Below, one piece after another: positions 5,763 to 52,631 of a stretch of DNA of 64,000 nt. The position numbers and the translations under genes were made by a program. Position 1 is the first letter of the stretch. Every line of letters starts with the position of its first letter. Source of the DNA: an uncultured Gammaproteobacteria bacterium. GTDB lineage: Bacteria > Patescibacteriota > Patescibacteriia > Magasanikbacterales > JBBTQS01. Where the stretch lies: contig OZ246400.1 in assembly GCA_965230935.1 (NCBI GenBank), forward strand, positions 758,359 through 822,358, written 5' to 3'. Below the pieces are notes generated by a model. That model saw nothing but the letters and a program-made list of their open reading frames with translations, had not been told where the DNA came from and ran no database searches.

Positions 5763-5836
5763 CGCGGGATAGAGCAATTGGCAGCTCGCCAGGCCCATAA
5801 CCTGGAGGTTGGGGGTTCGAGTCCCTCTCCCGCAAC
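5763..5836 (+). tRNA. tRNA-Met, anticodon CAT, with initiator (fMet) features
   Basis: Manual cloverleaf: acceptor stem CGCGGGA/TCCCGCA with a C1:A72 mismatch, D-stem GAGC/GCTC with A11:U24, anticodon stem CCAGG/CCTGG with loop CCCATAA (anticodon CAT), T-arm GGGGG-TTCGAGT-CCCTC and discriminator A. CCA is not encoded. Confidence 0.8.
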
Positions 5837-5900: not shown

Positions 5901-6596
5901 TCAGCGAGCGAGCGGGATCACGGCGCCACGTTCGATCTCCTCACGCGTCGGCGGCCAGGTGATGGCACCGGGGCAGCTCATGTCCTCGAATCCGCTGAGG
6001 CTGTTGTACAGATCGTGGGCGAACTGGTAGTTCGCGACCGAGACGTCGGTCGCGGTCCGTTCCTCAACAGTGCACGTCTGGTCGGTGGGCGGCGGATTGT
6101 CCGAGTCTGCGCACTCTTGATCGAACACACAGCCAGACCCAAACCTGTAGGCCCACTCCTTGATCGCGCACCGTTGCATGGCCCGCGACCAGTTGCACCA
6201 CTGGGGTGAGGGGTCTTGCGGGTGATACTCCTGGATCGAGAAGTAGAAGGTCGCCCAGACCAGCTCGTAGAGGAGCTCCCGGAGCTTCGGGTTCTTGGTC
6301 TTGAGGATCTTGCCCGGCGGATGTTTTTTGCCGGTCTCCTCGTCCACCTTGTGGCCCATGGTGAAAGCCACCATGCTGGTGTAGGATCGACGCACTACGG
6401 CGCCGACCACGTGGTTGAGGATGTTGCGATCGGCCTTGCTCAGCGACGTGTACTCGATGCCGGCATGCTGCAGAATCCGCTCCTGCAGCGCGGACTTGGC
6501 CTGTCGGTACTCGGCGCTACCGCGCTTGGGGGGTTTGGCCAGCGCGCCGTTGCTGAGCAGCGCGCATACAATGAACAAAAGAATAGTGCGGGGCAC
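5901..6596 (-). CDS. GC-rich secreted Cys-rich hypothetical protein with an N-terminal signal peptide; probably starts at GTG
   Basis: The ORF is about 62% GC against a backbone of about 45% GC. An in-frame GTG at 6596 is preceded by AAGGAG with a 5-nt spacer, which gives a classic signal peptide (PRTILLFIVCALLSNGALA). The longer ATG-initiated ORF (to 6647) adds 17 residues that do not look like a signal. The mature part is Cys-rich. No family was recognised. Confidence 0.65.
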   Translation of the reverse strand: MPRTILLFIVCALLSNGALAKPPKRGSAEYRQAKSALQERILQHAGIEYTSLSKADRNILNHVVGAVVRRSYTSMVAFTMGHKVDEETGKKHPPGKILKTKNPKLRELLYELVWATFYFSIQEYHPQDPSPQWCNWSRAMQRCAIKEWAYRFGSGCVFDQECADSDNPPPTDQTCTVEERTATDVSVANYQFAHDLYNSLSGFEDMSCPGAITWPPTREEIERGAVIPLAR

Positions 6597-6714
6597 GAGA
6601 TCTCCTTGGTCGGGGTGCGAATGAGTCGTGCACCAGGTGGAATGCACTCTGGTGCTCGACTGTCCTGACGCTATACTATTGTAACGGTTTTGTCAAGGAG
6701 ACAGGCACCTTTGC

Positions 6715-7143
6715 ATGTTTAGAAACGCTAGGGTACAATCTATGTGTTCACACCCTATGACAAATGGTTTGAGAAAATTTACTGTTGGCACGCTATTGGT
6801 GATATATGCGGCTTTTAGTTTTCCGATTTTTGGTCATGCCGCTACCATGACTACGCATAGCATGCCAATGCCTATGCATGAGCAGATGAATGGATGTGAT
6901 GATATGGGACAGTGTATGGGTACAGTTGGACAGGTAGCTGAGCAGGCGTGTATTGATCATTGTATTAGCGCAATACAACAATTCTCAGAACAAACAGCAC
7001 CAACTCTTTTTGCACTGATGATCGTGTTGTGCATGGTGGCAATGGCCTTTGCTCTTGTTCGAGCGATTCAGGTATTTGTCTCGTCCACCTATTGGCGCGG
7101 AAATTCATTACATCTTTTTACTACGATTCAATTATTAGAGTAG
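6715..7143 (+). CDS. Small Met/His/Cys-rich membrane protein, a putative copper-binding protein
   Basis: Met-rich motif HSMPMPMHEQM, a Cys cluster (GCDDMGQCMG, ACIDHCI) and a C-terminal TM helix. It lies immediately upstream of the copper ATPase/chaperone genes. Confidence 0.5.
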   Translation: MFRNARVQSMCSHPMTNGLRKFTVGTLLVIYAAFSFPIFGHAATMTTHSMPMPMHEQMNGCDDMGQCMGTVGQVAEQACIDHCISAIQQFSEQTAPTLFALMIVLCMVAMAFALVRAIQVFVSSTYWRGNSLHLFTTIQLLE

Positions 7144-7147
7144 CGCG

Positions 7148-7164
7148 TACTACATTGTGTAGTA
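7148..7164 (+). promoter_or_regulatory. Perfect inverted repeat TACTACA-TTG-TGTAGTA; candidate metalloregulator operator (cop-box-like TACAnnnTGTA) upstream of the copper cluster
   Basis: A 7-bp perfect arms palindrome sits 19 nt upstream of the 7183 start codon. The core TACA...TGTA resembles CopY-type operators. Confidence 0.4.
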
Positions 7165-7182
7165 ATTCATAACGCATACTCT

Positions 7183-8586
7183 ATGGCAAAGAAAACGCAA
7201 TCGTTTCAGATTGCAGGAATGACTTGCACGAGTTGTGAAGTCATTATTGAGCGAAAGCTCAAAAAAGTTGAAGGAGTGATTGATGCGCAGGTAACCCATT
7301 CCACTGGGCGATGTATTGTCACCACGGCATCAGGAAGTTACGTCAAGCGAGATCATATTATCGACGCTTTGGCAGATACCGAATACGCCTTTACCAATTC
7401 AGGACGCGACATTGATCGCCCAACCAGTTGGCGTAATCTCTTGAAAATCGGGGTCACGTTTATTGTGGTGTATATTGTTGCGACGCGTCTGGGGCTTCTT
7501 GCCTTTGATACGGCAATTGGGGACTCGATCAGTTATGCTGGTGCATTTGGCATTGGGCTAATTGCCTCAGTCTCCTCATGTATTGCAGTGGTTGGCGGGT
7601 TAGTACTCACGTTTACTGCTACCACAAAACGGTTGAATGAAGATGTCTCAAAGTGGCAGCTCTTTCGTGCCCACTTGTTCTTTAACAGTGGAAGGTTGCT
7701 TGGGTATTTTTTCCTAGGTGGTCTTGTAGCAATACTTGGTGCAGCAATAACGCCGTCATTACGAACCATGGGTTTGATCTCACTGGTTGCGGCGTTGGTA
7801 ATGGTGCTGCTTGCACTTGATCTTCTGGGATTAGGGGGCTCGAAAAAATGGATTCCGAGGATGCCAAAGAAATGGAGTCATTGGATTCATGATATAGCTG
7901 AACGAGGTGAGTGGTGGATTCCATTCTTACTTGGGGCATTAACGTTTTTTCTCCCATGTGGATTTACGCAATCCATGCAGTTGTATGCACTCACCACCGG
8001 AAGCTTTACTGAAGGTGCATTAACATTATTGTTTTTTGCACTTGGAACACTCCCTGCACTTTTGGGAATTGCCGCATTGGCAAGTGTGGCGTCTTCAAGA
8101 GGAAAAGCGTATCGGTGGTTTATGGTAGTTTCCGGTTGTATTGTATTACTCCTTGGGGTATATAATGTAAAAAACAGCATGAACTTACTTGGGATTAATG
8201 TACAAAGCTGGTTTTCCTCAGATGATGGTGTAGTGAATGTTCCGATTGCAGTAGCCCAGGGAGTACAGGTGGTAGACATGGCAGTATCAGGAATTGATTA
8301 TGTGCCAAGTAGAATCACGATTCAAAAAGGAGTTCCCGTACGGTGGGAAGTGGATGGTTCTGGTGCGGTAGGGTGTACTTCAGTGTTGGCGATTCCATCA
8401 CTTGGAATCTCTCGGCCACTTACGCGGACAGGAAAAACCGTTATCGAGTTTACGCCAACCAAGACCGGGAGACTGCCTTTTACTTGTGGGATGGGCATGG
8501 CCTATGGGGAGTTCACTGTGGTTGAAGCTGCGCCGAGTGCGCCAGTTGGATCAACCTGTAATTCACAAATACAAAGTTGTACATAA
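7183..8586 (+). CDS. HMA-domain (MTCxxC) polytopic membrane protein with a C-terminal cupredoxin-like domain; putative copper handling or transport protein
   Basis: N-terminal GMTCTSCEVIIE heavy-metal-associated motif, about 8 predicted TM helices including LPCGFTQSM, and a C-terminal beta-rich domain with GCTSVL...FTCGMGMAYGEF resembling a cupredoxin fold. Located in the cop cluster. Confidence 0.6.
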   Translation: MAKKTQSFQIAGMTCTSCEVIIERKLKKVEGVIDAQVTHSTGRCIVTTASGSYVKRDHIIDALADTEYAFTNSGRDIDRPTSWRNLLKIGVTFIVVYIVATRLGLLAFDTAIGDSISYAGAFGIGLIASVSSCIAVVGGLVLTFTATTKRLNEDVSKWQLFRAHLFFNSGRLLGYFFLGGLVAILGAAITPSLRTMGLISLVAALVMVLLALDLLGLGGSKKWIPRMPKKWSHWIHDIAERGEWWIPFLLGALTFFLPCGFTQSMQLYALTTGSFTEGALTLLFFALGTLPALLGIAALASVASSRGKAYRWFMVVSGCIVLLLGVYNVKNSMNLLGINVQSWFSSDDGVVNVPIAVAQGVQVVDMAVSGIDYVPSRITIQKGVPVRWEVDGSGAVGCTSVLAIPSLGISRPLTRTGKTVIEFTPTKTGRLPFTCGMGMAYGEFTVVEAAPSAPVGSTCNSQIQSCT

Positions 8587-8592
8587 CATACT

Positions 8593-8805
8593 ATGAAAAT
8601 CTATACGTATCGTATCGACGGTATGACCTGTCATGCGTGTGAATCCTTGATCACTATGGATTTGGAGGATGCAGGGTTACCAAAACCTGAATCGATTTCT
8701 GCTACAGCAGGAGAGGTCAAAATTGGTCTTGAAGAATCTCAAGTTGAATCAGTACGAGCGGCAATTGAATCAAGTGGGAAATACACGGTAACCAGCATCG
8801 TATGA
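8593..8805 (+). CDS. copZ: Copper chaperone CopZ-like HMA domain protein
   Basis: 70 aa with a GMTCHACE metal-binding motif; directly upstream of the P-type ATPase and overlapping it in ATGA fashion. Confidence 0.8.
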   Translation: MKIYTYRIDGMTCHACESLITMDLEDAGLPKPESISATAGEVKIGLEESQVESVRAAIESSGKYTVTSIV

Positions 8806-11060
8806 GTAACACAACGAAACAGTTTGATGTAACTGGCATGACCTGTGCGTCATGCGTTGCGATTATTGAGCGTGCGATTGGTAAGGTAGATGGGGTTGAT
8901 TCAGTGGCGGTTAATATTGCCACTGAAAAAGCTACCGTTGGTTTTGATTCAGCAAAAGTAAATCTTGAAACGCTCAATACCGCGCTTGGCGCACATGGCT
9001 ACACGTTTGTACAAAAGGACGTCGATACAAAACAAGAAGCAGATAGTACTGCGGTAGCAGAAGTACGCGCCTTGCGAAAAGTGGCACTCCCTGCGTTTGT
9101 GGCAGCAGCATTGTTGTTTGTCGCCATGATTATTGAGTTGAGCATGCAGGCGGTTGGATTAGAATTTTTTGTACCGATGCGACAATGGCATGTGTTGCAA
9201 TTTATCATCGCAACGCCGGTGTTGTTTTTGGCCGGAGGAAGATTTTTTGCCGGAGTGTGGCGATTTATCCGTTATGGAAGAGCTGACATGAACTCGCTTG
9301 TTGGGATTGGAACCATTGTGGCGTATGTCTATAGCACGGCAATCTTGTTCTTACCCCAACTACAAACGCAACTGGGATTGCCATCAGTAGTGTACTTTGA
9401 TGCCACAATTGTAGTAATCGGTTTTGTGCTGTTTGGAAAGTATCTTGAAGGACGATCGAAGATGAAGACCGGGCAAGCGATTCAGTCGTTGCTCAAACTT
9501 CAAGCGCGTATTGCCCATGTGCAGCGTGACGGAAAGATAGTTGATCTTCCGATTGAAGAGGTGCAAGTAGGTGATTTGTGTGTAGTGAAAGTTGGTGAGA
9601 AAATCCCAATCGATGGGATTATCACAGAAGGTTCATCCCACCTTGATGAAGCTATGATTACCGGGGAAAGTATGCCGGTGAAGCGTGAGGTTGGTGATGC
9701 CGTCATTGGTGCCACGATTAATACCGAAGCAGTGCTTACTATTGAGGCTACCGCAATCGGGGGAAATACCGTGTTAGCGCAGATTGTTAAGATGGTACAA
9801 GAGGCTCAAGGGTCTAAAGCCCCTATTCAACAATTTGCTGATACGATCTCTGCATACTTTGTCCCAGCGGTTGTGGTGATTGCCGTGGTGTCAGTTGTGC
9901 TCTGGCTTACGGTTGGGAGTAATCTCCTTGGGTTTGAAGCAGTGATTCCGATTGCGATCTCTGCACTGGTTGGGGTATTGGTTATTGCTTGTCCGTGTGC
10001 GCTTGGGTTGGCGACACCGACCGCAATTATTGTTTCAACCGGGACAGCAGCACGCAATGGACTTCTCATTAAGAACGCCGAAAGTTTAGAACGTGCGCAC
10101 GCAGTAGACACCATTGTCTTTGACAAGACCGGAACACTTACCCAAGGCTCTCCAACAGTCACTGACGTGGTCGCTGTAGATGGAAGTGATAAGCAGGAGA
10201 TTGCACGATATGCTGCTTCAGTGGAGAACATGTCCTCGCATCCCCTTGGTGCTGCTATTGTTGCATATGCACATGATGCCGATATGGATTTGGTTGATGT
10301 GCGTGATGCGACCGAGGTTGCTGGAATGGGGATTTATGCAACGATACAGAAAAAACAATGGATTGTGGGAACGACCACACTACTTACCCAATCCGGGGTA
10401 ACGATCAACGATGCACTGGTTTCTCAGACGACTGCTTTGCAAGAGCAAGGAAAGACGGTGGTGCATGTAGCACAAGGAAAGAAACACGTTGGTATTATCG
10501 CGATTACTGATGTGATTAAGGACAATGCAATTGCTGGCGTGTCGCAACTTCATAAACTCGGTGTCCGTGTCGTTATGCTTACCGGTGATAATACCAAGAC
10601 CGCAGAAGCGATTGCACAACAAGCGAGTATTGATGAAGTGCATGCTGAGTTGAGGCCAGAAGATAAAGCAAACATTATCAAAGAGCTGCAAAAGAAAGGA
10701 CGAGTAGTTGCTATGGTTGGTGATGGAATTAATGATGCACCTGCTCTTGCGCAATCAGACGTAGGAATTGCAATGAGTACCGGTACTGATGTGGCAATCG
10801 AGTCTGCTGATATTACGGTGCTGCATGGAGACATTACCAAAGTGGTGGATGCATTGCGATTATCCCGACGGACATTGCGGGTGATTAAGCAGAATTTGTT
10901 CTGGGCGTTCTTTTATAATGTCATTGGTATCCCGCTTGCCGCAGGATTGTTCTATCCAGTATTTGGGTGGCTACTCAATCCCGCATTTGCCGGAATGGCC
11001 ATGGCGTTTAGTTCGGTATCAGTGATTACCAATTCATTGCGACTGCGGCGATTCAAGTGA
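8802..11060 (+). CDS. copA: Copper-translocating P1B-type ATPase
   Basis: N-terminal HMA GMTCASCVAIIE, the CPCALGLATP transmembrane metal site, the DKTGTLT phosphorylation motif and the GDGINDAP hinge. Confidence 0.95.
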   Translation: MSNTTKQFDVTGMTCASCVAIIERAIGKVDGVDSVAVNIATEKATVGFDSAKVNLETLNTALGAHGYTFVQKDVDTKQEADSTAVAEVRALRKVALPAFVAAALLFVAMIIELSMQAVGLEFFVPMRQWHVLQFIIATPVLFLAGGRFFAGVWRFIRYGRADMNSLVGIGTIVAYVYSTAILFLPQLQTQLGLPSVVYFDATIVVIGFVLFGKYLEGRSKMKTGQAIQSLLKLQARIAHVQRDGKIVDLPIEEVQVGDLCVVKVGEKIPIDGIITEGSSHLDEAMITGESMPVKREVGDAVIGATINTEAVLTIEATAIGGNTVLAQIVKMVQEAQGSKAPIQQFADTISAYFVPAVVVIAVVSVVLWLTVGSNLLGFEAVIPIAISALVGVLVIACPCALGLATPTAIIVSTGTAARNGLLIKNAESLERAHAVDTIVFDKTGTLTQGSPTVTDVVAVDGSDKQEIARYAASVENMSSHPLGAAIVAYAHDADMDLVDVRDATEVAGMGIYATIQKKQWIVGTTTLLTQSGVTINDALVSQTTALQEQGKTVVHVAQGKKHVGIIAITDVIKDNAIAGVSQLHKLGVRVVMLTGDNTKTAEAIAQQASIDEVHAELRPEDKANIIKELQKKGRVVAMVGDGINDAPALAQSDVGIAMSTGTDVAIESADITVLHGDITKVVDALRLSRRTLRVIKQNLFWAFFYNVIGIPLAAGLFYPVFGWLLNPAFAGMAMAFSSVSVITNSLRLRRFK

Positions 11061-11074
11061 GACCAGGCATACAT

Positions 11075-11106
11075 ACACCCAGGCACATTGCCTGGGTGTA
11101 TTTTTT
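11075..11106. terminator. Bidirectional intrinsic terminator between convergent copA and the 11105-11710 gene
   Basis: Stem ACACCCAGGC / GCCTGGGTGT with loop ACATT, followed by TTTTTT (A-run on the other strand). Confidence 0.7.
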
Positions 11107-11710
11107 AGTCGTGAGGGATTATATCGACATGGGTATCTTTTTCTTCTGTCGGTATTTCAGGTGTGTCGCGATTCGTATCTTGTATAGATACATCATCACC
11201 TATTGGCTTTCCATGGTGGTCGGTTATCTCTATGGTAGAGAATATAGTTTTCGCTGCAATAATACTCCCACCATATAAGAGTAATCCGACTACAATTGAA
11301 ATACCAATTGCCGATGCGAATTTACGAAAAAATTTTGTAAGAGTGTGTGTAGGGTTGTGCCAAAGAATCAAAGCAACAATAGCAATAAGTTCTATAGTCA
11401 CCAGAATGATTCCCAGAGGATCAACATGTTCCGGAGCGTTTAAAAATGGTGCGGGAAAAATTCGAGTAAAGATCCACATACTCAGGAGTGCACCGTTAAG
11501 CACAATACCAATATGGTGAAATAGTTCTTTTTGGTTTTTATAAAACCAAAACGCCCAAACAAGTTGGGCAACGCCAATGACAATAAAAAAGAACCATTCA
11601 GGAGCAACACCTTTGTGTACTTGGGCAACAAGTGTTATGTGGAGTATCCCAGCGGTAATTGCACTCATTCCGGCAAGAGAGCCATATACTTTTTTAGGGA
11701 CAGTGTGCAT
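11105..11710 (-). CDS. Hypothetical polytopic membrane protein with an acidic, His-containing C-terminal tail
   Basis: 201-aa ORF with 5 or 6 hydrophobic helices; tail ...DHHGKPIGDD...THVDIIPHD. Confidence 0.5.
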   Translation of the reverse strand: MHTVPKKVYGSLAGMSAITAGILHITLVAQVHKGVAPEWFFFIVIGVAQLVWAFWFYKNQKELFHHIGIVLNGALLSMWIFTRIFPAPFLNAPEHVDPLGIILVTIELIAIVALILWHNPTHTLTKFFRKFASAIGISIVVGLLLYGGSIIAAKTIFSTIEITDHHGKPIGDDVSIQDTNRDTPEIPTEEKDTHVDIIPHD

Positions 11711-11765
11711 AGATAAGAAATATTGTTATTTCGGGCAGCAGACTGTGTCTGCTGCCCGAAGTGAT

Positions 11766-12278
11766 TTATTTGTGTCGTAATGATGCGAAGATCATAAAGA
11801 TACCAAAGATGATGACCAAAAGGAATATCATCGGTACCCAACTGGCATGCCAGCCAAATCCCCAAGAACCCATCATCGTCGGTCCTGGCAAGGGAATTTG
11901 CTGCGTATTTGGTGGCTGTACTTGTTCGTTTCTGCGTACGCCCATAAGGGTAAGTACGTTGTCAGCTTGCTTTTCGCAGTACATCTTTTGTGCAATCCGA
12001 ACATGGGCATTATGCAGCATCGGTGTACCTTCACCACCCATCATGTCATCCATCATATTGTGAACTTCTTCATCCGGATACATGAGGTTCATGAAGTATT
12101 CGCCAATCATTTCATATTCATCTTCAGAAAGTTCATCACAGGACACTTCTTGTTCAATAAGCGTCTTTGCTTCTTCAAGATTTGCATCGCCGTGTGCATA
12201 TACACTAGTGACCAGTAGAGGAGTTAGTAAGATTGCGGTCAGTATAATGCCAAGCGGGCGATATTGTGTGGTAGTCAT
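11766..12278 (-). CDS. Met/His-rich secreted protein with a C-terminal TM anchor; putative periplasmic copper-binding protein
   Basis: Signal peptide (LLTPLLVTSVYAHG), Met-rich stretches (MNLMYPDEEVHNMMDDMMGG, MLHNAH) and a C-terminal hydrophobic helix. Lies in the cop cluster. Confidence 0.5.
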   Translation of the reverse strand: MTTTQYRPLGIILTAILLTPLLVTSVYAHGDANLEEAKTLIEQEVSCDELSEDEYEMIGEYFMNLMYPDEEVHNMMDDMMGGEGTPMLHNAHVRIAQKMYCEKQADNVLTLMGVRRNEQVQPPNTQQIPLPGPTMMGSWGFGWHASWVPMIFLLVIIFGIFMIFASLRHK

Positions 12279-12760
12279 ATTCTGGTGAATTCGGTAATTA
12301 CTCCTTCAGCATCAAATGCATAGATAATGAAGGGTTCTTGTTGTGGTCCAGGCATCCCTGGAGATCCTTGGGGCATCCCGGGTAGTGCGATGCCAACGAT
12401 ATCGGGCTTCTCTTGCATGAGACGTTCGACTACTGTTTCAGGAACATGGCCTTCTACCACATAGTTTCCAATGATGCTGGTATGACAACTTTCCAAGGAT
12501 TTAGGTACCCCAAGTCTGTTTTTCACATCAGTGATATCGTCTTGTTGTACCACTTCTATTGTATATCCTTTTCGACGCATGTGTGAAACGTATCCACCGC
12601 AACATCCGCAGGTTGGCGACTTGTATACTGTCATTTCTGTAGTATCAATTCGCTGTGCCAGTTGCGTTTGGGTGGTCGTTCGTTGATAGAAGATCATGCC
12701 GGCTAATATCAACAGCACTCCGGTTGCGCCAAGAAGTAATTGTTTCTTGGTTTTCTTCAT
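12275..12760 (-). CDS. DUF411 (CopG-like) periplasmic metal-binding protein with a CxCCG motif
   Basis: N-terminal TM/signal followed by the YKSPTCGCCGGY motif characteristic of DUF411/CopG copper-resistance proteins. Confidence 0.7.
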   Translation of the reverse strand: MKKTKKQLLLGATGVLLILAGMIFYQRTTTQTQLAQRIDTTEMTVYKSPTCGCCGGYVSHMRRKGYTIEVVQQDDITDVKNRLGVPKSLESCHTSIIGNYVVEGHVPETVVERLMQEKPDIVGIALPGMPQGSPGMPGPQQEPFIIYAFDAEGVITEFTRI

Positions 12761-12762
12761 AG

Positions 12763-13527
12763 TTAGAGAAGAGAATCAATCAAGTCTTGGATTTGCGAAA
12801 TTGGAAGCGCGCCAGAGAGTGGTATGGTTTCTCCACTTGGTGAGATCACTACCGAATAGGGAGTACCTTGTCCGCCCGCAGCAACCGCCTCTTTGCTGTG
12901 TTGGGTTACTACTGGGGACATTTCTCCGGAATCAAGACAGTTAGTGAATGCGCTTCGATCAAGTCCTATTGCTTGTGCAATATCCGGCAACTCACTTTCG
13001 GCAAGCCCATCATTTGATGGTGTGCGTTCGAAGATTTCATCCAGATATGCCCAGAAGCCATCATTGCCACCAAGCTTTGCGGCACATTCAGTTGCTTCGG
13101 CTTCTTTACGCGCATTTCGATGGAGACTTTCAAGTGGGAAGTGTTTGTACACCCACTTTACTTTTCCGGGGTATGTAGCGAGAATTTGCTGCATAGTGGG
13201 ATGGAAACGTTTACAGAATGGGCATTCGATATCTGAGAATTCAACGATGGTAATCGGCGCATCGTTGTCTCCACGGATGTGATCTTGGTTGGTTATCGCA
13301 GCCAGTTGTATCGGTGCGCTTGGTGCGGGGTTTGGATTTGGTGCTGCTGCAGGTATAGGCACCTCAGCTACTGTAGGAGTTGGTACAATTGCAGCAGTGG
13401 TTGTGTCATCACGAAGTACAATTCCAAGGAGGATAAAAAATCCAATTGTGCAGAGGATAAGGATGCCACCGGCAAATCCCACGAGTGCACTTCGTTTATC
13501 AATTAAGGTTGGTTGTTGTTCGTTCAT
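12763..13527 (-). CDS. DsbA-like thioredoxin-fold thiol:disulfide oxidoreductase, membrane anchored
   Basis: N-terminal TM helix and the CPFC active-site motif (FSDIECPFCKRFH) typical of DsbA/BdbD. Confidence 0.8.
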   Translation of the reverse strand: MNEQQPTLIDKRSALVGFAGGILILCTIGFFILLGIVLRDDTTTAAIVPTPTVAEVPIPAAAPNPNPAPSAPIQLAAITNQDHIRGDNDAPITIVEFSDIECPFCKRFHPTMQQILATYPGKVKWVYKHFPLESLHRNARKEAEATECAAKLGGNDGFWAYLDEIFERTPSNDGLAESELPDIAQAIGLDRSAFTNCLDSGEMSPVVTQHSKEAVAAGGQGTPYSVVISPSGETIPLSGALPISQIQDLIDSLL

Positions 13528-13597
13528 AGGGTTATGAGATAATACAATTCAATACAAAAACACAACAGCAAAGATAGTTGTGTTGTGGGAAAGGTAT

Positions 13598-13999: not shown

Positions 14000-14102
14000 A
14001 GGGATTATGATACCATCATGGTATCAAAGATTATGGTATCTGAGTAGGGAGTGATAGAGAAGAAAAAATCCCAGTTCTGGGATTTTTTCTACCCTCCTCT
14101 TT

Positions 14103-14148
14103 TAGAGCGGCAAACCGGGTTCGAACCGGCGACCTCATCCTTGGCAAG
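14103..14148 (-). repeat. Distal 46-nt direct repeat of the tRNA-Gly 3' half (att site), with the probable ancestral tRNA terminator hairpin next to it
   Basis: TAGAGCGGCAAACCGGGTTCGAACCGGCGACCTCATCCTTGGCAAG matches 45 of 46 positions of tRNA-Gly from the anticodon loop to the CCA end (19751-19796). The flanking hairpin AAAATCCCAG-TTC-TGGGATTTT is at 14070-14092. Confidence 0.85.
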
Positions 14149-14307
14149 TATTCCTAAAAGACAGGAGGCACCCGGCAGGCAACGGAGCGACCGTTGTGCG
14201 GGGTTGATTAGTACAAGAAGATTAGCATTAAGAAATTTACGCTGTCAAATTAATGGAATTCAAAACACCCAGCCGGTTGGCCGAGTGTCTCGGTTGTTGT
14301 TGAATTG

Positions 14308-16557
14308 TTAGTCCCTCTGCGATTTGCCAAGGAACGTGTCCCAGTTTAACCAATCATCCTTGTAAGTTCTACGCGGCGTGCTTGGTAGCTGTTTCACGTT
14401 GCTTGCCAACTCTTCGTACTCCGATTTACTACCCACTTTCTTGGACTGGACGAACGCCGAAGCTATTTCGTAGTCCCAGAAACGAGCAGAGCGTCCTCGG
14501 AGTTTGCTCTTGTGAGTTCCCAGAAAAGTTGACCAGTCCACCCAATCGTCCTCGTAGACAACGTCTGGATGTCGAGGTAGGCATTTCGGTTTGGGAAGAC
14601 CTCTGCGCAGCTCCCTGTATGAAGGTTCCGTGGTGACCCCGTTATCTCTTACGAACTTAACGGCATCAGCATACGGAAGGAGGTGGGATCGACGTCCTGC
14701 TTCTTCCCTCCGCCTTTCCTTCCCCAGGAACATGCCCCAATCCACCCAATCCTCACTGTAAGTTCGGTTTGGATTACTCGGGAGGCTTGCAGTTCGCGAA
14801 GCCAGCTCCTGGTATAAAGACTTGGATGTCACCCCTTCAGCACGAGCCAGAGCGGAAGCCGCTCGATAGTCGTAGAATTCTTGACCACCCCACACCTTTC
14901 CTGTGCCACAGAAGTGGGGCCAGCCACGCCACTCGTCGCTGTAGAATTTCTTGGGGTTTTGAGGTAGACGACGGTCTTTGCGGTAGTGCTGTTGGTACTG
15001 CGTAGAGTTCAAGACTCTCGGTCGCAGTCGCCTAAGAGCAGTCATCGCTTCCCCCATCGTGGAGTAAAGTTCGACCACGACCTTATCAGCAGCGGCCAGG
15101 ATGTCGACCATCTCTTCGGAGAACAGAATCTTGAAGCCGGCAGCGATGATCACGCTCTTGCGATTACCTCCACCACCTCCACCTGGTTCGTCCTCCTCTT
15201 CGTCCTCGTCGGAATCAGCCTCAGCCTCGCTGTCGCCGTCCTCCTCTTCGTCCTCGTCGGAATCAGCCTCAGCCTCGCTGTCGCCGTCGTCAAGTCCAGG
15301 TTTCGGCTTCAAGTGGCCACCCCAATCCTCGACACTCACGCCGTCCTCCGAGTAGGATTTCGGATCGAAGTCGGGAGTAGCACCGTAGTCCTCGAGGAAA
15401 CCAGCAATCATCTGCAGACGTCGAACGTTTCCGACGAAGTCCAGGACAATCACGGTTTTTTCTGCGTTGCGCAGACCCCGACCCAACTGCTGAGTCCAGA
15501 TTCGAACAGAGTCCGTGACCCGGAGAAACACGACAAGCTCAGCGTCAGGGATGTCCATCCCTTCGTTGAACATGTTGATTACCAGGATGGTTTGCAGATC
15601 CCCCTCTCGGAAGTCGTGCAGAATCGCATCCAAGCCTCCTTCCGCCTTGGAGTGAAACGGAACGGCGTCAGGCATAAACTCGTTCACAACCTCGATGTGC
15701 TTCACGTCCCGACAGAAGATGATGGTCTTCTTACTGGCTCCCTGCTCTTTCCTGATGATTCGGCATTGCTCCTCGAGAGACTCCTCGAGGAACACACTGC
15801 GGTTGATGTCCGCAATACTGACGAGTCGATCTCCTTCGTCGAGGCGCCGTAGAAGCTCTCTGAGCTTGGCCTCGTCGAGGTTGTCCGACATGAGCCGGTA
15901 GTCCAGATAGGCCAGATACCCAGGTGGCTGGGTTTCGGCCATCCGGAGCGCTTGCATCAGGGTGAGTTGGAACACTGGTCGGCCAAAGACTTCGTCGGTG
16001 TCCCAGGTTGTCGTGTCCGCACGCTCTGGTGTGGCGGTAAGACCGACCGTGAAGGTCGCACCCGAGAAGTACTCCAATACTCCCAGGTAAGTCTCGGCCG
16101 GCGCGTGATGACACTCGTCCACGATGATGAGGGTGAACTCATCCTTCGTGTATCGGGAGAGCCGATTCCCCATCCCTTGGAATGTGGTGAACAGTACGTC
16201 GGCGTCCGGATTCTCGGTTTCCTTGCTGCAGATGATTCCGGTCGTGAAACCAGTCCCCGCAAGCGTGGAAGCGAAGTCACCTTTTCTTGCCTGACGCATC
16301 GGACCGGTTTGGTCCACCATGAAAAGAACACGCCCACCATGATACTGGAGCCAGTTACGTACGAACTCCGCAATGGTGAACGTCTTGCCAAGGCCGGTGG
16401 CCATGACAACGAGCGCTCGCTTCTGTCCCTGCACGTATGCTGCCGTGAGTGCCACGTTACAGCACAGCTGGTAGGGACGGAGCACCTTCTTTGCCTTTGC
16501 AGGCTTACTTGCTGTCATGATCACCCTCCTACGAGTGCCCAGTTGTTGATGGTCCAA
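14308..16557 (-). CDS. SF2 (DEAD/DEAH, type III restriction Res-like) helicase with a poly-acidic linker and four C-terminal ~55-aa Trp-rich repeats carrying the motif Y-x-[DE]-[DE]-W-x-x-W-x-x-F-[LC]-G
   Basis: Helicase motifs LRPYQ, MATGLGKTF (Walker A), IIVDECHH (DExH) and TATP, plus helicase-C motifs QxxGRGxR. The linker contains DGDSEAEADSDEDEEED twice. The repeats are FYSDEWRGWPHFCG, YSEDWVDWGMFLG, YEDDWVDWSTFLG and YKDDWLNWDTFLG. Confidence 0.8.
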   Translation of the reverse strand: MDHQQLGTRRRVIMTASKPAKAKKVLRPYQLCCNVALTAAYVQGQKRALVVMATGLGKTFTIAEFVRNWLQYHGGRVLFMVDQTGPMRQARKGDFASTLAGTGFTTGIICSKETENPDADVLFTTFQGMGNRLSRYTKDEFTLIIVDECHHAPAETYLGVLEYFSGATFTVGLTATPERADTTTWDTDEVFGRPVFQLTLMQALRMAETQPPGYLAYLDYRLMSDNLDEAKLRELLRRLDEGDRLVSIADINRSVFLEESLEEQCRIIRKEQGASKKTIIFCRDVKHIEVVNEFMPDAVPFHSKAEGGLDAILHDFREGDLQTILVINMFNEGMDIPDAELVVFLRVTDSVRIWTQQLGRGLRNAEKTVIVLDFVGNVRRLQMIAGFLEDYGATPDFDPKSYSEDGVSVEDWGGHLKPKPGLDDGDSEAEADSDEDEEEDGDSEAEADSDEDEEEDEPGGGGGGNRKSVIIAAGFKILFSEEMVDILAAADKVVVELYSTMGEAMTALRRLRPRVLNSTQYQQHYRKDRRLPQNPKKFYSDEWRGWPHFCGTGKVWGGQEFYDYRAASALARAEGVTSKSLYQELASRTASLPSNPNRTYSEDWVDWGMFLGKERRREEAGRRSHLLPYADAVKFVRDNGVTTEPSYRELRRGLPKPKCLPRHPDVVYEDDWVDWSTFLGTHKSKLRGRSARFWDYEIASAFVQSKKVGSKSEYEELASNVKQLPSTPRRTYKDDWLNWDTFLGKSQRD
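15193..15288. repeat. Exact 48-bp tandem duplication (two copies) inside the helicase gene, encoding the 16-aa acidic unit DGDSEAEADSDEDEEE
   Basis: CTCCTCTTCGTCCTCGTCGGAATCAGCCTCAGCCTCGCTGTCGCCGTC occurs at 15193-15240 and again at 15241-15288 with no mismatch. Confidence 0.9.
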
Positions 16558-16634
16558 ATCTCAGGCGAATGTCTGAGCAAGACCGGAAGCCCCAAGTGGG
16601 CACGGAGTAGGAGGTGATTGACGTCCTAAAGATA

Positions 16635-16691
16635 CCTATGGCGACATAGGTAAGGACACAAAATCATAGCATAATTTAGCCAATATGTCAA
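16635..16691 (-). promoter_or_regulatory. Minus-strand promoter TTGACA-N17-TATGAT for the helicase gene, with the palindrome ACCTATG-GCGA-CATAGGT at the predicted start region (candidate operator)
   Basis: Read on the minus strand: TTGACA (16691-16686), a 17-nt spacer, then TATGAT (16668-16663). The 7-bp arm palindrome at 16635-16652 lies 10-27 nt downstream of the -10 element. The motif TTTAGCCAA occurs twice upstream. Confidence 0.55.
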
Positions 16692-16921
16692 GTATAAATG
16701 ATCATTAGGGATGTGTACATTGGCATGGTCTAACCAATTTAGCCAAATAATGGGTAGCCAGCGACCTCACCCCTGGAAAAGATGTGTGGTAAAAAAGTGA
16801 AAGATGATGTGCCAAATCACAAGATCGTTGATTGAACACGATTTTCGTTAAATTTTTTTTGCCTAAAACAAAAGAAAAAACCCCTGTTCAGGGATTCCTT
16901 CTTCCTCCTCCTCTGGAGCGG

Positions 16922-16967
16922 CAAACCGGGTTCGAACCGGCGACCTCATCCTTGGCAAGCGTCCCGA
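16922..16967 (-). repeat. Second 46-nt direct repeat of the tRNA-Gly 3' half (internal att site between elements A and B)
   Basis: TGGAGCGGCAAACCGGGTTCGAACCGGCGACCTCATCCTTGGCAAG matches tRNA-Gly positions 32-76 exactly. The adjacent roughly 70 nt (16968-17035) resemble the 14149-14215 sequence and include a CAACGG-N5-CCGTTG hairpin. Confidence 0.9.
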
Positions 16968-17314
16968 AAAGAGAGGAGGGAACTTTGCAAGCAACGGCAG
17001 AGCCGTTGTGCAGGGTTGATTAGTTTCTCCATTCTACCAAGACGAGGCTGTTTCCGTCAACTCACCGGAATGATTATATAAAATCTGCTGTCGAACTACA
17101 AGACGACCCCAAAGGGTCGTCTTGTTTGTGTTCAACTGCCACCGCAGGGCTGTGGATAAGCCATGCATCTCGCGGTACGTCTCAAAACCAACGAGTTGCT
17201 CTATGCTAATGGCAGGCCGATGGTCCTGCCACCCCCTGGCTGCGACGACTGGCTTTGCGGAACCCATCATCTACACGAAAGGAGGTGACCCACGACTGTA
17301 CAGCATTCGGCTGA

Positions 17315-17638
17315 ATGCTGTCAAATAACCCTATGAAATCACAAATGAATCCGGTCGGTCGGCCGCTTGTGTTGCGCGTGCGCGGGCTGCGTACCTGTCG
17401 TCTTGGCGATGCCATGACTCAGCGTCAGCTCGCCGACCTTGCAGGCATCACGCTTAAGCGCCTTCAGCGTCTTGAGACCATGCGCGTAATGCCACATGAG
17501 TTGCAGGAGCTTCACGCGCTTGCCCTCGCGTTGCAGGTGCCGATGGAGCAGCTGTTCCACCCGCAGTGGGGCGAAGACCACCGAACCATCATCGAGGACA
17601 GGCGGTCGGTCTTGGCTGCAGGTCGTCAGGCCGCGTGA
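17315..17638 (+). CDS. XRE-family helix-turn-helix transcriptional regulator (Cro/CI-like); the true start may be an internal Met
   Basis: HTH segment MTQRQLADLAGITLKRLQRLE; small size; located within integrated element B. Confidence 0.55.
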   Translation: MLSNNPMKSQMNPVGRPLVLRVRGLRTCRLGDAMTQRQLADLAGITLKRLQRLETMRVMPHELQELHALALALQVPMEQLFHPQWGEDHRTIIEDRRSVLAAGRQAA

Positions 17639-17815
17639 CGCTGGTGGCGCCGGTTGGGCGAGAACGCCCTTGAGGGTTCAGTTTCTTTGTATCGTCGTCT
17701 CATGCTGTACTTTCCAGTTGGCGAGACCCTGCTGGCCCTATCCGCCATAGATTCGTTAGAAGAAATCAGCGAGACCCGCGGCGAACGCCGATACAAGGCG
17801 TAGGCTTGACAAAGT

Positions 17816-17844
17816 ACATAAAATGTGTTATGCTGCTCCAAACA
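17816..17844 (+). promoter_or_regulatory. Near-consensus sigma70 promoter TTGACA-N17-TATGCT inside element B, driving an apparently noncoding stretch
   Basis: TTGACA 17816-17821, a 17-nt spacer, TATGCT 17839-17844. It forms an AT-rich patch inside GC-rich DNA. Confidence 0.55.
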
Positions 17845-18298
17845 CACTCCTCCATCCACGGCAAAAGTGGCCGAGAATCCGCCAAACTGCGCGCCAACCG
17901 AGCGGTCAGAACGCTGGAAACTGTGCTCTCGACATGAGATGAACGAGGACGTCACCGGGGTGACCCATGTGCGCAGCATCGCTGCTCACGCGGGTCGTCC
18001 TGGACGAGGGGTGAGACTCGGCTGAGTCCCTGACGGTGTCCTCGGCTTATGTCCGCTCCGAACGTTCCTGTCCTACCAGGACGCGCCCAGGGCGACCTCC
18101 ACTCAACGGCTCTGACTGTCCAACCAGTCGGAGTCGTCTTTTGTTTTGGTCAAAACCGGGGCAGAGCATGGACTGCCAGCCCATGTCATTGTGATTCTTG
18201 TGTTGTGGGGTCGCGCAAGAAGAAACCGCGCCCCCGCCCAGTCCCAAGGGTAATGACCACCCATGAGAAGGACGGGGACGCGGTCCGCGAGTCTCAGC

Positions 18299-18718
18299 CT
18301 ACTTGTGTGGGAGCACTCCCTTGAGAGCCTCCACCGGGAGCAGGTTCTCGACTTCTCGTCGTGCGAGTAGGTAGAACCGGTTGCCGAGTTCCTTTTGCAG
18401 TCGTTTCTTGCGTTCGGCCTTCGCCTCTTCCTCGTCGCGGTCCATCACGACGAATGCGCGCGCACAAAGCCGCTTCACGGCAATACGCGCGGCATCACTA
18501 ACGTGGGCGTCGTCGAAGGACCAGTGCTCGACGTTCGCGCCGGCGTATTCCACGAAGGAGTAGTGCACGTCCTCGACCAAGCGTGGGGCGTCAGCGTGCG
18601 CCTGCTCGTACATGCGCAAGTACTGCCGTAGGTACTGTCGGTCCGTGACACCTTCGACCCAAATGGTGGCGCTGGAAAGGTAGACGGACGTGTTGCTGCC
18701 GACGTCAATTAATTTCAA
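18299..18718 (-). CDS. Standalone TOPRIM-like domain protein (OLD-family / DUF4435-like C-terminal nuclease module), probably a remnant
   Basis: Motifs IWVEGVTDRQYL and VVMDRDEE (DxD) with the C-terminal ENLLPVEAL match the Toprim core of OLD/AriB-like nucleases. At 139 aa it is too short for a complete protein of this family, and no ATPase partner ORF is adjacent. Confidence 0.45.
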   Translation of the reverse strand: MKLIDVGSNTSVYLSSATIWVEGVTDRQYLRQYLRMYEQAHADAPRLVEDVHYSFVEYAGANVEHWSFDDAHVSDAARIAVKRLCARAFVVMDRDEEEAKAERKKRLQKELGNRFYLLARREVENLLPVEALKGVLPHK

Positions 18719-18953
18719 GTAGCGCGCCTATGCCCTACGCAAAACCACAACTCAGCGAAGCACTCCTGCGCTTCTTCTACGGCGACATGCGCTTCGACAA
18801 ACTCACCATCGTGAAGATGACCGGCTGGGACCTCAAGGAGCTCGATGCTCTGCGCAGGCAAGCTGACATTCGCAAAGGGGAGCCAACGGCAGGGCCTCTT
18901 GAGTACGAACACCTGGACCAGCTCGCCACGCGAATCAGCGCCGCGCCACATTA

Positions 18954-19565
18954 CTACGGCAATCGTCGTGCTCCTTGGGTGCGCAGGAAATGGCACGAGA
19001 AGCTGCGCGCCATGGCGCTGGGCACCAGCCGGTCTTTGTCACCCTTCCCGTGACGAACCAGGATGGTGCGCTCCTCCAGGTTGACGTCGGCGCAGTCCAG
19101 CGCCAGCAGCTCACTACGTCGCAGGCCGGCGAAGATGAACAAGGAGAGCACGGCATGCGCGCGGTGCCCGGCGTAGTGGTACTTGTAGAGCTTGCGTACC
19201 ACTGAGAGCACCTGTCGTGCCTGCTGCGCTGTGAGGCTCTTGGGCAGGCTCTTGGGCAAACGCGGCTTCTCCAGGGCGCGCGCATAGTTCTTCCGCAGGA
19301 GCTTCTGCTTGATGCACCAGTCGAAAAAGGCAATCAGGCTCCTGCGGTACGTGAGGTAGGTGCGCACCTTCCAGGCGCCGGAGCTGCGGCCAAGCAGGAA
19401 GAAGGAGCGGACGTTCTTGTCCGTAATCTCGTGCAGGTACGTAGTGCCAGCGCACTTGGCATACAGGCGCACGCCTTGGCGGTAGCGCGTGATGGTGGCG
19501 CCTGAGAGCGCACGGAAGTTGATGGCCTCGTCGCAGAACGTACGAAGCGCCTGGTCAATGGTCAT
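18954..19565 (-). CDS. Tyrosine recombinase/integrase, C-terminally truncated and probably inactive
   Basis: The N-terminal SAM-like core-binding region and catalytic box I (FAGLRRSELLAL) are present, as is the beta-hairpin with catalytic Lys (RHGKGDKDRLVPS). The ORF then ends after about 30 residues in a double stop (TAG TAA), with no HxxR-H/W-Y catalytic region in any frame downstream. It lies adjacent to the tRNA-Gly 3' end. Confidence 0.7.
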   Translation of the reverse strand: MTIDQALRTFCDEAINFRALSGATITRYRQGVRLYAKCAGTTYLHEITDKNVRSFFLLGRSSGAWKVRTYLTYRRSLIAFFDWCIKQKLLRKNYARALEKPRLPKSLPKSLTAQQARQVLSVVRKLYKYHYAGHRAHAVLSLFIFAGLRRSELLALDCADVNLEERTILVRHGKGDKDRLVPSAMARSFSCHFLRTQGARRLP

Positions 19566-19750
19566 AGGGGTTGGAGTTAGTCCTGCGCAAAGCTCTTAGC
19601 TTGCGTCAGCTCCTCCATGCTAGCGGCATCATCTGCGTACCGGAAGTGCCGAGAGTGCCTTTGGGTGTCCACAGCGAGAACACAAAAGGCAGGGTTCCTT
19701 TGGGAATCCTGCCTAGATTTAGCGCAAAAATGGGCGCATGAATCTGTGTT

Positions 19751-19826
19751 TGGAGCGGCAAACCGGGTTCGAACCGGCGACCTCATCCTTGGCAAGGATG
19801 CGCTCTACCAACTGAGCTATTGCCGC
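19751..19826 (-). tRNA. tRNA-Gly, anticodon GCC, with encoded CCA
   Basis: The reverse complement reads GCGGCAATAGCTCAGTTGGTAGAGCGCATCCTTGCCAAGGATGAGGTCGCCGGTTCGAACCCGGTTTGCCGCTCCA, a canonical 76-nt cloverleaf with anticodon loop TTGCCAA. Confidence 0.95.
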
Positions 19827-21418: not shown

Positions 21419-21584
21419 ATATGTGTGATTACGTGGTGCAAATGTCTGCGTCAACAGACTCCCACATGATTAATGTGGTTGTATGGTAGGGGAAAATGGC
21501 AAAATTGTCAAGGGAAGTAATATCGGGAAAAAGCATACAACAGACCTGGTGGCCTGCTGCGCGTTGTATGTTGGTTGTTGGTGA

Positions 21585-21971
21585 TCAGCCGCCACCGGTG
21601 CCGGCGCCAGTCCGTGGGACGGACCGCATCACCGAGGCGCCCTCGCGAGCCGTTTCCTCGCCGTCTGGCGAATCTTGTTCAGCTGCGTCAGCGCGCTGCA
21701 ATGCCTCGCGAAGGAGGGTAACGGCGCTTTTGGCAAGGCCAGAGGTTTGGCACAGCCTCTGCAGACGCGTGTCCAGTCGCAGAATCGCCCAGACCAGCTC
21801 CCGCTGCTCACGATCGAGCGGAGCTCGGCTCAAGATGATCGCCGCGACTTCGCACGCGCGATCACTGTGCCCATGGCCTGCGAGCGCTTGGGCAAGCCCG
21901 CGGTCGTGCTCGTGGTCTCCGCTAAGTGCGGCGAGCATGAGCTCGAAGAGTGGTTTTTTCGGTGGTGGCAC
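21585..21971 (-). CDS. Hypothetical protein encoded on a GC-rich ~0.5-kb insertion between rplA and rplK
   Basis: The 21.5-22.0 kb segment is about 65% GC, and this 128-aa helical ORF is in the same orientation as the operon. The overlapping plus-strand ORF looks spurious. Coding status is uncertain. Confidence 0.3.
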   Translation of the reverse strand: MPPPKKPLFELMLAALSGDHEHDRGLAQALAGHGHSDRACEVAAIILSRAPLDREQRELVWAILRLDTRLQRLCQTSGLAKSAVTLLREALQRADAAEQDSPDGEETAREGASVMRSVPRTGAGTGGG

Positions 21972-22057
21972 CTATCATTACCCCCGTTGTTTTGGTTGCC
22001 GCATGAAAGTAACGTGGCTTGAAGGTAGCACGGTATGCGGCATTCGTCAATATCAAA

Positions 22058-22082
22058 AACACCCCGGGAGCTCCGGGGTGTT
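22058..22082 (-). terminator. Near-perfect palindromic hairpin immediately downstream of rplK, with a T-run on the minus strand
   Basis: ACACCCCGGGAGCTCCGGGGTGT followed by GTTTTTGATATTG on the minus strand. Confidence 0.55.
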
Positions 22083-22094
22083 GCGTGAGTGAAA

Positions 22095-40539: not shown

Positions 40540-40680
40540 AATTTGCCGTTTGGCATCTGTTCTCTGACATCAAAATTTGGACTTGCGAGGTGTTGTTTGC
40601 AAGTAGTATACGGCGATGGGCTTCAGCAACCACGCGTCTCGATCTTGCTCGAGTGGCACGATCTGAGCGCGGACTGGGTG

Positions 40681-52483: not shown

Positions 52484-52631
52484 AATACTTAGTTAAATTA
52501 TAAATGATTTAAAAGTTTTCCGCTAAAGGCAGGCGAAGGCGGATTGCACATAACTGGTTTCAATCCGCACTTTCTTGCTGATAATACTCGAATCTTGCGT
52601 AGTATGCGAACTATCTGTACAATACCATAAT

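Follow-up and report, generated by a model that had tools for sequence, protein, structure and literature searches.

Two small integrative elements probably frozen in tandem in the 3' half of a tRNA-Gly(GCC) gene of a Patescibacteria bacterium

INTRODUCTION

Site-specific insertion into tRNA genes (tDNAs), tandem arrays of the inserted elements, and decayed hitch-hiker elements are textbook phenomena in cultivated bacteria. Tyrosine integrases that target tRNA genes work with an attachment site (attP) that holds a copy of the tRNA 3' end; integration completes the tRNA gene and displaces its native 3' half. The subject here is a locus that bears the marks of such events in a 64,000-nucleotide (nt) stretch of a metagenome-derived genome (GenBank assembly GCA_965230935.1, contig OZ246400.1, positions 758,359 to 822,358; hereafter "the window"), in which two adjacent segments, element B and element A, lie between three copies of the 3' half of tRNA-Gly(GCC). 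With a probability of about 0.72, we read it as a tandem array, now frozen, that two small integrative elements formed in the 3' half of this tRNA gene in a Patescibacteria bacterium.

Among described systems, the Islander collection of tDNA islands includes 125 tandem arrays, and its commonest attP class is centered on the anticodon (2,083 of 3,919 islands) (PMC4383910). A cis-mobilizable element (CIME) is an element that retains both flanking attachment sites, attL and attR, without integration genes; the term and the associated process of accretion are defined in PMC5704250, whose passages on examples of the ICESt1/ICESt3 type cite Pavlovic 2004 and Bellanger 2011.

COMPARISON WITH DESCRIBED SYSTEMS

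Like the tDNA islands of Islander and TIGER, the present locus has a tRNA gene regenerated by element DNA, 3' fragments in direct orientation, a block of identity that starts at the anticodon loop, a recombinase beside the tRNA, an anomalous composition, and two islands in one tDNA. The full-length tDNA is intact and is accompanied on its 3' side by two co-oriented cognate fragments (46/46 and 45/46 identical positions); their boundary falls at a recognized crossover sublocation (the anticodon loop, class A of PMC4383910); and the element lengths, 2,791 and 2,765 bp, lie inside the 2-200 kb range that Islander accepts. At about 2.8 kb each, the two elements are near its lower limit, in contrast to the usual peaks at 13.6 and 40 kb. 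Islander asks for a tyrosine integrase gene of neither Xer nor integron type inside an island and, for a tandem, for an integrase in each member, whereas here a tDNA fragment belongs to each member and only B holds an integrase remnant, the N-terminal two-thirds (203 amino acids [aa]), for which the best models are XerC/D-like and score below their cutoffs; A has none. The host, a Patescibacteria metagenome-assembled genome (MAG), also differs from the usual Islander cases. Site-specific insertion into a tRNA gene with tandem formation is a known kind of event, and the locus is one more case of it.

Element A has the structure of a CIME: a core copy of the tRNA 3' half stands at either end (16914-16959 and 14103-14148), and the sole gene between them encodes a helicase. 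As in CIMEs, this att-flanked segment without integration genes has as its tandem partner an element with a related arm and an integrase, and gene capture, as in CIME accretion, would explain why the attachment region of A resembles an attR. The ICESt1/ICESt3-type examples are different, in that neither A nor B has conjugation or mobilization genes and the helper integrase is itself dead. On sequence grounds the structure of A fits the definition; mobilization by its neighbor is putative, as is any derivation by decay of a larger element.

The element A gene also resembles Patescibacteria proteins that combine a helicase with INT_rpt ("integrase repeat-containing") domains, with which it shares the full architecture and aligns end to end. 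It differs from the other copies in being at most 36% identical to any of them and in lying inside an att-bounded segment. A prophage or phage satellite is not indicated: PHROGs matches were confined to the helicase, a regulator, and the integrase, with none to structural, packaging, or replication-hijack genes of phages; no DNA similarity beyond a low-complexity stretch was found among 50,697 phage records and none that was meaningful to plasmids; and viral contigs matched only the generic helicase core, at 25-33% identity. An SSV-type split integrase was considered and rejected, as the fragment ends inside the element at ~19020 and no C-terminal part lies near 16960 or elsewhere in the island.

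THREE COPIES OF A tRNA 3' HALF

An earlier note on this DNA, made from the sequence, had proposed two successive insertions behind an intact minus-strand tRNA-Gly(GCC) gene, and ARAGORN and Rfam agree on that gene (Table 1). The core, its last 46 nt, begins with the final base of the 5' anticodon-stem strand, ends with the encoded CCA, and recurs twice, where the chance expectation in the window is none. All three copies are on the minus strand in direct orientation, and both fragments, lying 3' of the tRNA, have its orientation. The middle copy is exact (46/46), as the earlier note had it, but stands at 16914-16959 and not 8 nt higher at 16922-16967; the distal copy carries the single mismatch (45/46, CCA to CTA) that it had reported at 14103-14148. 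Core-to-core spacings are 2,811 and 2,837 nt, and the two adjacent elements of about 2.8 kb that had been proposed measure 2,791 and 2,765 bp between core copies.

In a three-way alignment, identity with the tRNA starts at one common base (position 31, bordering the anticodon loop) in both the middle and the distal fragments, and the base that precedes the core differs in all three copies. Truncations of tRNA genes that arose independently would differ in their boundary, whereas recombination at one fixed point of strand exchange would give both the same one; a common boundary beside the anticodon loop marks the entry of an element into a tRNA gene by means of a tyrosine integrase.

The distal fragment ends in CTA (14104), and the copies taken to be element derived (16915 and 19752) encode CCA. 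The tRNA-Gly(GCC) gene of the one syntenic relative found, contig L079 (positions 2745-2818), likewise has no encoded CCA. The pattern fits a native tRNA gene that relied on CCA addition and elements that supplied an encoded CCA. Since the distal fragment alone of the three copies lacks the encoded CCA and the L079 tRNA does so too, it is the likeliest of them to be the native 3' end, which would have been displaced to form the attR junction; a single substitution is weak evidence, in the right direction.

COMPOSITION

Both segments are compositionally foreign to the host. Guanine-plus-cytosine (GC) content is 59.0% in element B and 53.4% in element A (55.7% in its coding sequence), compared with 46.1% in the 14 kb to the left and 45.2% in the 44 kb to the right; outside the locus, no 2.8-kb stretch of the window exceeds 50.2%. 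The figure of near 60% against a 45% backbone that the earlier note gave for both elements thus holds for B and for the backbone but not for A. At third codon positions (GC3), the helicase gene of A stands at 0.64 and the open reading frames (ORFs) of B at 0.69-0.83, against 0.35-0.42 in four flanking host genes. Followed in 150-nt steps, the rise in GC sets in ~300 nt inward of the distal repeat and is over less than 100 nt from the tRNA.

ELEMENT B AND ITS BROKEN INTEGRASE

The recombinase ORF of element B matches a SAM-like N-domain and positions 2-72 of the 172 in Phage_integrase (Pfam). Matches to XerC/D-type models, 290-300 positions long, reach only ~177-184 and score far below their cutoffs; a 300-aa homolog aligns only up to residue 182; and all of the detectable homologs (17/17) cease aligning at 19020-19041. 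HxxR and Tyr motifs were not found in any frame downstream of the truncation, and six-frame translation together with tblastn using the 17 homologs found no missing C terminus in the island. A 28-aa tblastn match at 18170-18250 on the plus strand was dismissed as a candidate for it (E ~1). As judged from these alignments, the recombinase of element B is a pseudogene that lacks the catalytic C-terminal third. The integrase gene that had been described as adjoining the tRNA does adjoin it, at 186 nt, but as a truncated remnant in which homology ends near 19020.

Other contents of the element are similarly fragmentary. An ORF that takes in the DNA immediately past the truncation point and overlaps the recombinase 3' end on the opposite strand has no family match in Pfam, PHROGs, PADLOC, or NCBIfam. 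The 139-aa fragment bears a weak likeness to the Toprim part of OLD/GajA-type nucleases (PADLOC GajA, positions 381-479 of 627, E 0.0015; Pfam RloB, E 0.0075), with the ATPase part absent. The element also holds a Cro/CI-type helix-turn-helix (HTH) regulator and ORFs without any family match. The terminator-like hairpin that B supplies just downstream of the tRNA has no homology to the middle and distal hairpins described below (three-way alignment).

Elsewhere in the window, at 52575-53444, lies a full-length tyrosine recombinase of 289 aa with complete RHRY-type motifs and a host-like AT-rich composition. It is only 31% identical to the island fragment over 88 aa, shows what the fragment lacks, and may be the host Xer-type enzyme.

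ELEMENT A AND ITS HELICASE

The one gene of element A is an intact superfamily 2 (SF2) helicase in which ResIII and Helicase_C domains are followed by an acidic linker and then by about four C-terminal INT_rpt repeats. No integrase was found among the ORFs of the element (ORF list and Pfam). Homologs number more than 5,000, the closest being 36% identical over 99% of the length, and those with a named source come from Uhrbacteria, Parcubacteria, Azambacteria, Paceibacterota, Saccharibacteria, or unclassified bacteria. Upstream of the gene lies an AT-rich spacer (16560-16871, 41% GC) with a promoter-like site.

The acidic linker contains a perfect in-frame tandem duplication, 2 x 48 nt, at 15189-15284 (DSEAEADSDEDEEEDG twice). 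The ERR2281801 assembly breaks at this point: contig L002 stops at the repeat, and L006 begins ~60 nt further on. The break may reflect copy-number variation.

ARMS, HAIRPINS, AND THE 155-NT UNITS

Upstream of both fragments, in the tRNA orientation, lies an arm of ~65 nt made up of ACTAATCAACCC, the palindrome CAACGG-N5-CCGTTG, and then CCTCCT. The palindrome occurs in the window only at 14180-14196 and 16992-17008; its stem is invariant and all five loop bases differ, as the earlier note had observed of the two repeats. That note had also seen ~70 nt of related sequence beside both internal repeats. Alignment of the element ends, which it had recommended, extends this relatedness to both sides of the core (14060-14212 versus 16872-17024; 155 aligned nt, 84%) and brings in a second terminator hairpin that had been missed. 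The arm homology beside both internal cores, a feature read from sequence, supports related att sites.

A terminator hairpin of the form AAAAAATCCCAG/CTGGGATTTTTT follows the distal core and is probably the native tRNA-Gly terminator. It had been proposed as the ancestral one and as a mark of the distal repeat; the hairpin exists at 14056-14095, but it is not unique to that copy because a homologous hairpin (16872-16905) follows the middle core. Over 34 nt the middle hairpin and its distal counterpart (14060-14093) are 82% identical, with one compensatory stem change (A-T to T-A), and GAGGAGG precedes the hairpin after both fragments. Promoter-like hexamers, TTGAC(A/G)-18-TA...T, stand in register upstream of both arms and are directed at the core. 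In the B arm they form a sigma-70-like promoter (17060-17031) flagged by the scan; in the A arm TTGACA-18-TAATCT at ~14220-14250 was read from the alignment, and the scan gave no flag.

Table 1. Coordinates of features at the tRNA-Gly(GCC) locus and of helicase-INT_rpt genes in other contigs (positions refer to the window unless a contig is named)
Feature	Position	Strand	Basis or remark
tRNA-Gly(GCC), intact, attL junction	19751..19826	-	ARAGORN; Rfam RF00005, 71 bits
Core copy in tRNA (3' 46 nt)	19751..19796	-	core match
Terminator-like hairpin and T-run just downstream of tRNA, supplied by element B	19680..19713	-	sequence reading
Element B, 2,791 bp, 59.0% GC, patchwork of gene fragments	16960..19750		bounded by core copies
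Truncated tyrosine recombinase, 203-aa ORF (pseudogene)	18954..19565	-	Pfam Phage_integrase; homolog alignments
107-aa ORF over recombinase truncation point	18730..19053	+	ORF list
139-aa fragment, weakly like Toprim part of OLD/GajA-type nucleases	18299..18718	-	PADLOC, Pfam
Cro/CI-type HTH regulator, 107 aa	17315..17638	+	Pfam HTH_31/HTH_26/HTH_3; PHROG transcriptional regulator or repressor
Element B arm beside middle core	16960..17060	-	ACTAATCAACCC, palindrome 16992-17008, CCTCCT, promoter-like site
Middle core copy, 46/46, element B/element A junction	16914..16959	-	core match
Terminator-like hairpin directly after middle core	16872..16905	-	repeat search; alignment
Element A, 2,765 bp, 53.4% GC, one gene, no integrase	14149..16913		core bounds; ORFs; Pfam
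Promoter-like site TTGACA-17-TATGAT, 11/12, upstream of helicase gene	16663..16691	-	promoter scan
Intact 736-aa SF2 helicase	14308..16518	-	Pfam ResIII + Helicase_C, INT_rpt
Element A arm beside distal core, homologous to B arm	14149..14212	-	alignment; palindrome 14180-14196
Distal core copy, 45/46, CTA end versus CCA	14103..14148	-	core match
Terminator hairpin AAAAAATCCCAG/CTGGGATTTTTT after distal core	14056..14095 (arms 14056-14074 / 14077-14095)	-	inverted repeat
Helicase-INT_rpt beside tRNA-Gly(GCC)	L080:5676-8289
Helicase-INT_rpt beside transfer-messenger RNA (tmRNA)	L083:3931-7172
Helicase-INT_rpt beside tRNA-Thr (GGT)	L085:3871-5844
Helicase-INT_rpt beside tRNA-Glu (CTC)	L088:5001-7385
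INT_rpt/helicase/INT_rpt cluster ending 165 nt from tRNA-Arg 3' end	L086:2673-10447

ASSEMBLY SUPPORT AND RELATIVES

Flanking genes in the window include secE-nusG-rplK-rplA, gyrB, a copper ATPase, and DsbA, and they assign the window to a Patescibacteria genome. Window proteins also occur, collinear and at ≥99.9% identity, on a 931-kb NCBI contig and on contigs of three runs of PRJEB17505 (European Nucleotide Archive). Each junction of the locus is spanned in at least two independent k=127 assemblies, and the three samples have one and the same arrangement. Logan unitigs, built at k=31, end inside the repeats, as would be expected; the exact repeat is only 46 nt long, so that a mis-join at k=127 is not plausible.

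An empty site was sought through the L1 protein in 185,579 species-representative genomes, and none of the 67 loci found there has tRNA-Gly(GCC) after rplA. The nearest L1 proteins in that collection are at most 60% identical and belong to Magasanikbacteria-, Uhrbacteria-, and Parcubacteria-like MAGs. A homolog search with the neighboring 285-aa protein yielded one syntenic relative, L079, in which rplA (63%, tblastx) is followed by a 292-aa homolog of the 285-aa protein (38%, BLASTP) and by tRNA-Gly(GCC). Synteny with the window stops exactly at the tRNA 3' end, where the L079 site has no island and the downstream DNA is unrelated. As to the comparison with an empty site that the earlier note had called for, the L079 tRNA is free of an island, but the relative does not serve as proof of an empty site because it is too distant (38% in the neighboring protein). 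Exact-pattern scans for the arm, the arm plus core, and the tRNA 3' half found none in viral contigs or in Joint Genome Institute (JGI) metagenome contigs, and the arm motifs are absent from 168 compared loci, copies of the same genome excepted.

Beyond the distal repeat lies a metal/redox cluster (6700-13530) of HMA-domain proteins, a P-type ATPase (8802-11060), DUF411, and a DsbA-like thioredoxin. Nothing comparable follows the tRNA in L079, so that the variable region at tRNA-Gly may extend beyond the two islands.

A PROPOSED HISTORY

The tandem array could have arisen as follows. A circular element whose attP included a 46-nt copy of the tRNA 3' end would have been joined to the chromosome by its integrase, with strand exchange in or beside the anticodon loop; the element copy would complete the tRNA, and the native 3' half would come to lie at the end of the element away from the tRNA. 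Were one of the att sites so formed then used for a second integration, the order would be tRNA, B, core, A, core, native terminator. Either order of arrival would yield the same product. The tRNA would then consist of a host 5' part and a 3' part from B, the middle junction of the B arm, the core, and an A flank, and the last junction of the A arm, the core, and the host flank.

Element B would have brought the integrase, the HTH regulator, and the nuclease-like gene, and would have decayed later. Element A would be a CIME or hitch-hiker dependent on a B-type integrase acting in trans. The likeness of its att region to a complete attR junction suggests an origin by gene capture: A may have arisen when DNA beside an integrated B-like element was captured in a related, GC-richer host, in which case its att region would be that attR junction (B-like arm, core, and the terminator of the related host) together with the adjoining helicase gene. 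As the integrase has no catalytic C-terminal third, nothing at the locus should now be able to move itself, and the array would be fixed. Of the two successive insertions at one attB proposed earlier, the boundaries, the composition, and the recombinase bear out the outline; the terminator after the middle core is left unexplained by that simple story.

ALTERNATIVE EXPLANATIONS

It is possible, although unlikely, that a single event produced the locus, with B and A accreted into a composite in an earlier host and integrated once, so that the middle repeat was imported. Transfer of a whole CIME-ICE tandem (ICE, integrative and conjugative element) is documented (PMC5704250). Such an import would account for a middle core that is a copy of the tRNA core, both encoding CCA, unlike the distal copy, and the host-like terminator at 16872-16905 inside the array would then stem from the previous host. 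The difference in GC3 between A (0.64) and B (0.69-0.83), on the other hand, suggests separate histories. One event and two local insertions are inseparable here because the final structure is identical.

Rather less probable is that only B is an island, the helicase gene being a native neighbor, the middle fragment and its hairpin the native 3' end, and the distal copy a product of duplication or gene conversion of the attR junction. The order in contig L080, where tRNA-Gly(GCC), a terminator, an AT-rich spacer, and a helicase-INT_rpt gene follow each other, matches the window from 16959 down to 14308, and the 155-nt units are homologous on both sides of the core. The codon composition of the helicase gene is foreign, however (GC3 of 0.64 versus 0.35-0.42), and a further arm-core-terminator unit placed precisely at its other end is accounted for only by site-specific or Campbell-type integration. 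Units that are 84% identical with a conserved core do not point to a recent duplication, and it is the distal fragment, not the middle one, that lacks CCA as the relative L079 does.

Selection might instead have preserved the ~155-nt units as small RNA genes, each with a promoter, an RNA of ~150 nt that holds the tRNA 3' half within a CCUCCU/AGGAGG stem, and a terminator; we consider this very improbable. Hexamers resembling -35 and -10 sites stand in register upstream of both units while the spacer between them has diverged (7/18 identical), the terminator stem shows a compensatory change, the palindrome has an invariant stem and a wholly diverged loop, and copy 1 folds better than shuffled sequences (z = -2.7). 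Yet for copy 2 the value is z = -1.2, the minimum-free-energy folds of the two copies differ, and two copies make covariation statistics impossible. There is no match to an Rfam family and no homolog in any collection searched, and a protein-binding site in the arm explains conservation of the palindrome equally well.

An assembly chimera, or decayed tandem tRNA genes that have nothing to do with island boundaries (the outcome that the earlier note had named as fatal to its proposal), has hardly any credit left: although all of the data are short-read metagenome assemblies and the k=31 unitigs break in the repeats, the junctions are identical in three samples at k=127 with an exact repeat of 46 nt, both fragments are cut at one base, non-tRNA arms homologous to each other stand in place of their 5' halves, and the GC shift falls at the outer repeats.

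Several observations weigh against the tandem-array reading itself. Neither relatives nor the contigs of the three samples that carry the flanking proteins yielded an empty attB, an excised circle, or an alternative junction. Integration is known from its scars, because no intact integrase is present. Elements A and B share no gene, so the view of them as one family, put forward in the earlier note, is carried solely by the related arm of ~65 nt. The terminator-side flank of A is homologous to the host flank, where a plain attP model predicts otherwise, and the assumption of gene capture is needed to accommodate it. Near-equal core spacings have no explanation under the model and are taken as coincidence. 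L079, the closest syntenic relative, has only 63% identity in L1 (tblastx). Finally, helicase-INT_rpt genes are common chromosomal genes of Patescibacteria, so that the helicase need not be foreign in kind.

HELICASE-INT_RPT GENES BESIDE tDNAs

The surroundings of helicase-INT_rpt genes were examined for eight homologs, with DNA available for seven, a small sample without a test design. In four of the seven contigs (L080, L083, L085, and L088) the gene directly adjoins a tDNA, always on its 3' side, and in a fifth, L086, a cluster of such genes ends close to a tRNA gene (Table 1); L076 and L081 have no tDNA adjoining the gene. If the chance of a tDNA neighbor is taken as ~9% (our own estimate, from an assumed ~45 tDNAs per 1,000 genes), 4/7 has a binomial p of ~0.0015. 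No integrase or tDNA fragment was seen near the homologs in the seven contexts, and no helicase homolog was found in the 67 GTDB rplA loci. Helicase GC3 exceeds that of neighboring genes in L076 (0.61 versus 0.41-0.49) and L080 (0.66 versus 0.44-0.55), in each of which one further ORF, of unknown function, is also GC3 rich (0.73 and 0.66, respectively); in L081 the excess is marginal, and two adjacent genes are richer.

We tentatively suggest, as a possibility that we regard as doubtful, that helicase-INT_rpt genes are the cargo of widespread, undescribed, integrase-less minimal islets at tRNA and tmRNA 3' ends in Patescibacteria, of which element A would be the one copy that keeps both att scars. 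If so, the attR-like att region of A would record how such islets form, by gene capture and cis-mobilization.

OTHER GC-RICH GENES IN THE WINDOW

Other patches of high GC content are scattered through the window. In the rplK/rplA spacer at 21500-22090, a GC-rich (~60-66%) minus-strand ORF of 117-128 aa (21585-21938/21971) with a weak TPR match has terminator-like and promoter-like signals on both sides and has the look of one gene inserted into an operon that is normally compact. A minus-strand ORF (5901-6647; 62% GC, GC3 0.82) with no Pfam family lies just past tRNA-Met (5763-5836, plus strand) and its terminator; the window contains no repeat of a tRNA-Met fragment, so that island limits cannot be placed around this GC-rich gene at 5.9-6.6 kb. 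Isolated GC-rich ORFs also occur at 40543-41028 (no family, GC3 0.69) and 42268-42816 (DUF218, GC3 0.66). Together these suggest a genome dotted with single-gene patches of foreign composition.

CONCLUSIONS

What the locus offers is the same process that is familiar from cultivated bacteria, with unusually small elements and in a Patescibacteria genome of ~0.93 Mb. Horizontal gene flow is hard to document in such genomes because close relatives and isolates are lacking, and the locus provides a precisely bounded example of foreign DNA, taken up by a reduced, probably symbiotic lineage and holding one intact cargo gene. Its practical value is modest: the att sites and the arm motif can be used to find active relatives. 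Clustering of helicase genes at tDNA 3' ends is testable at scale, and the importance of the locus grows only if that association is general. Should it prove so, these helicases would be a recurrent cargo of small tDNA islets in the candidate phyla radiation (CPR), with element A showing the route by which they arrive.

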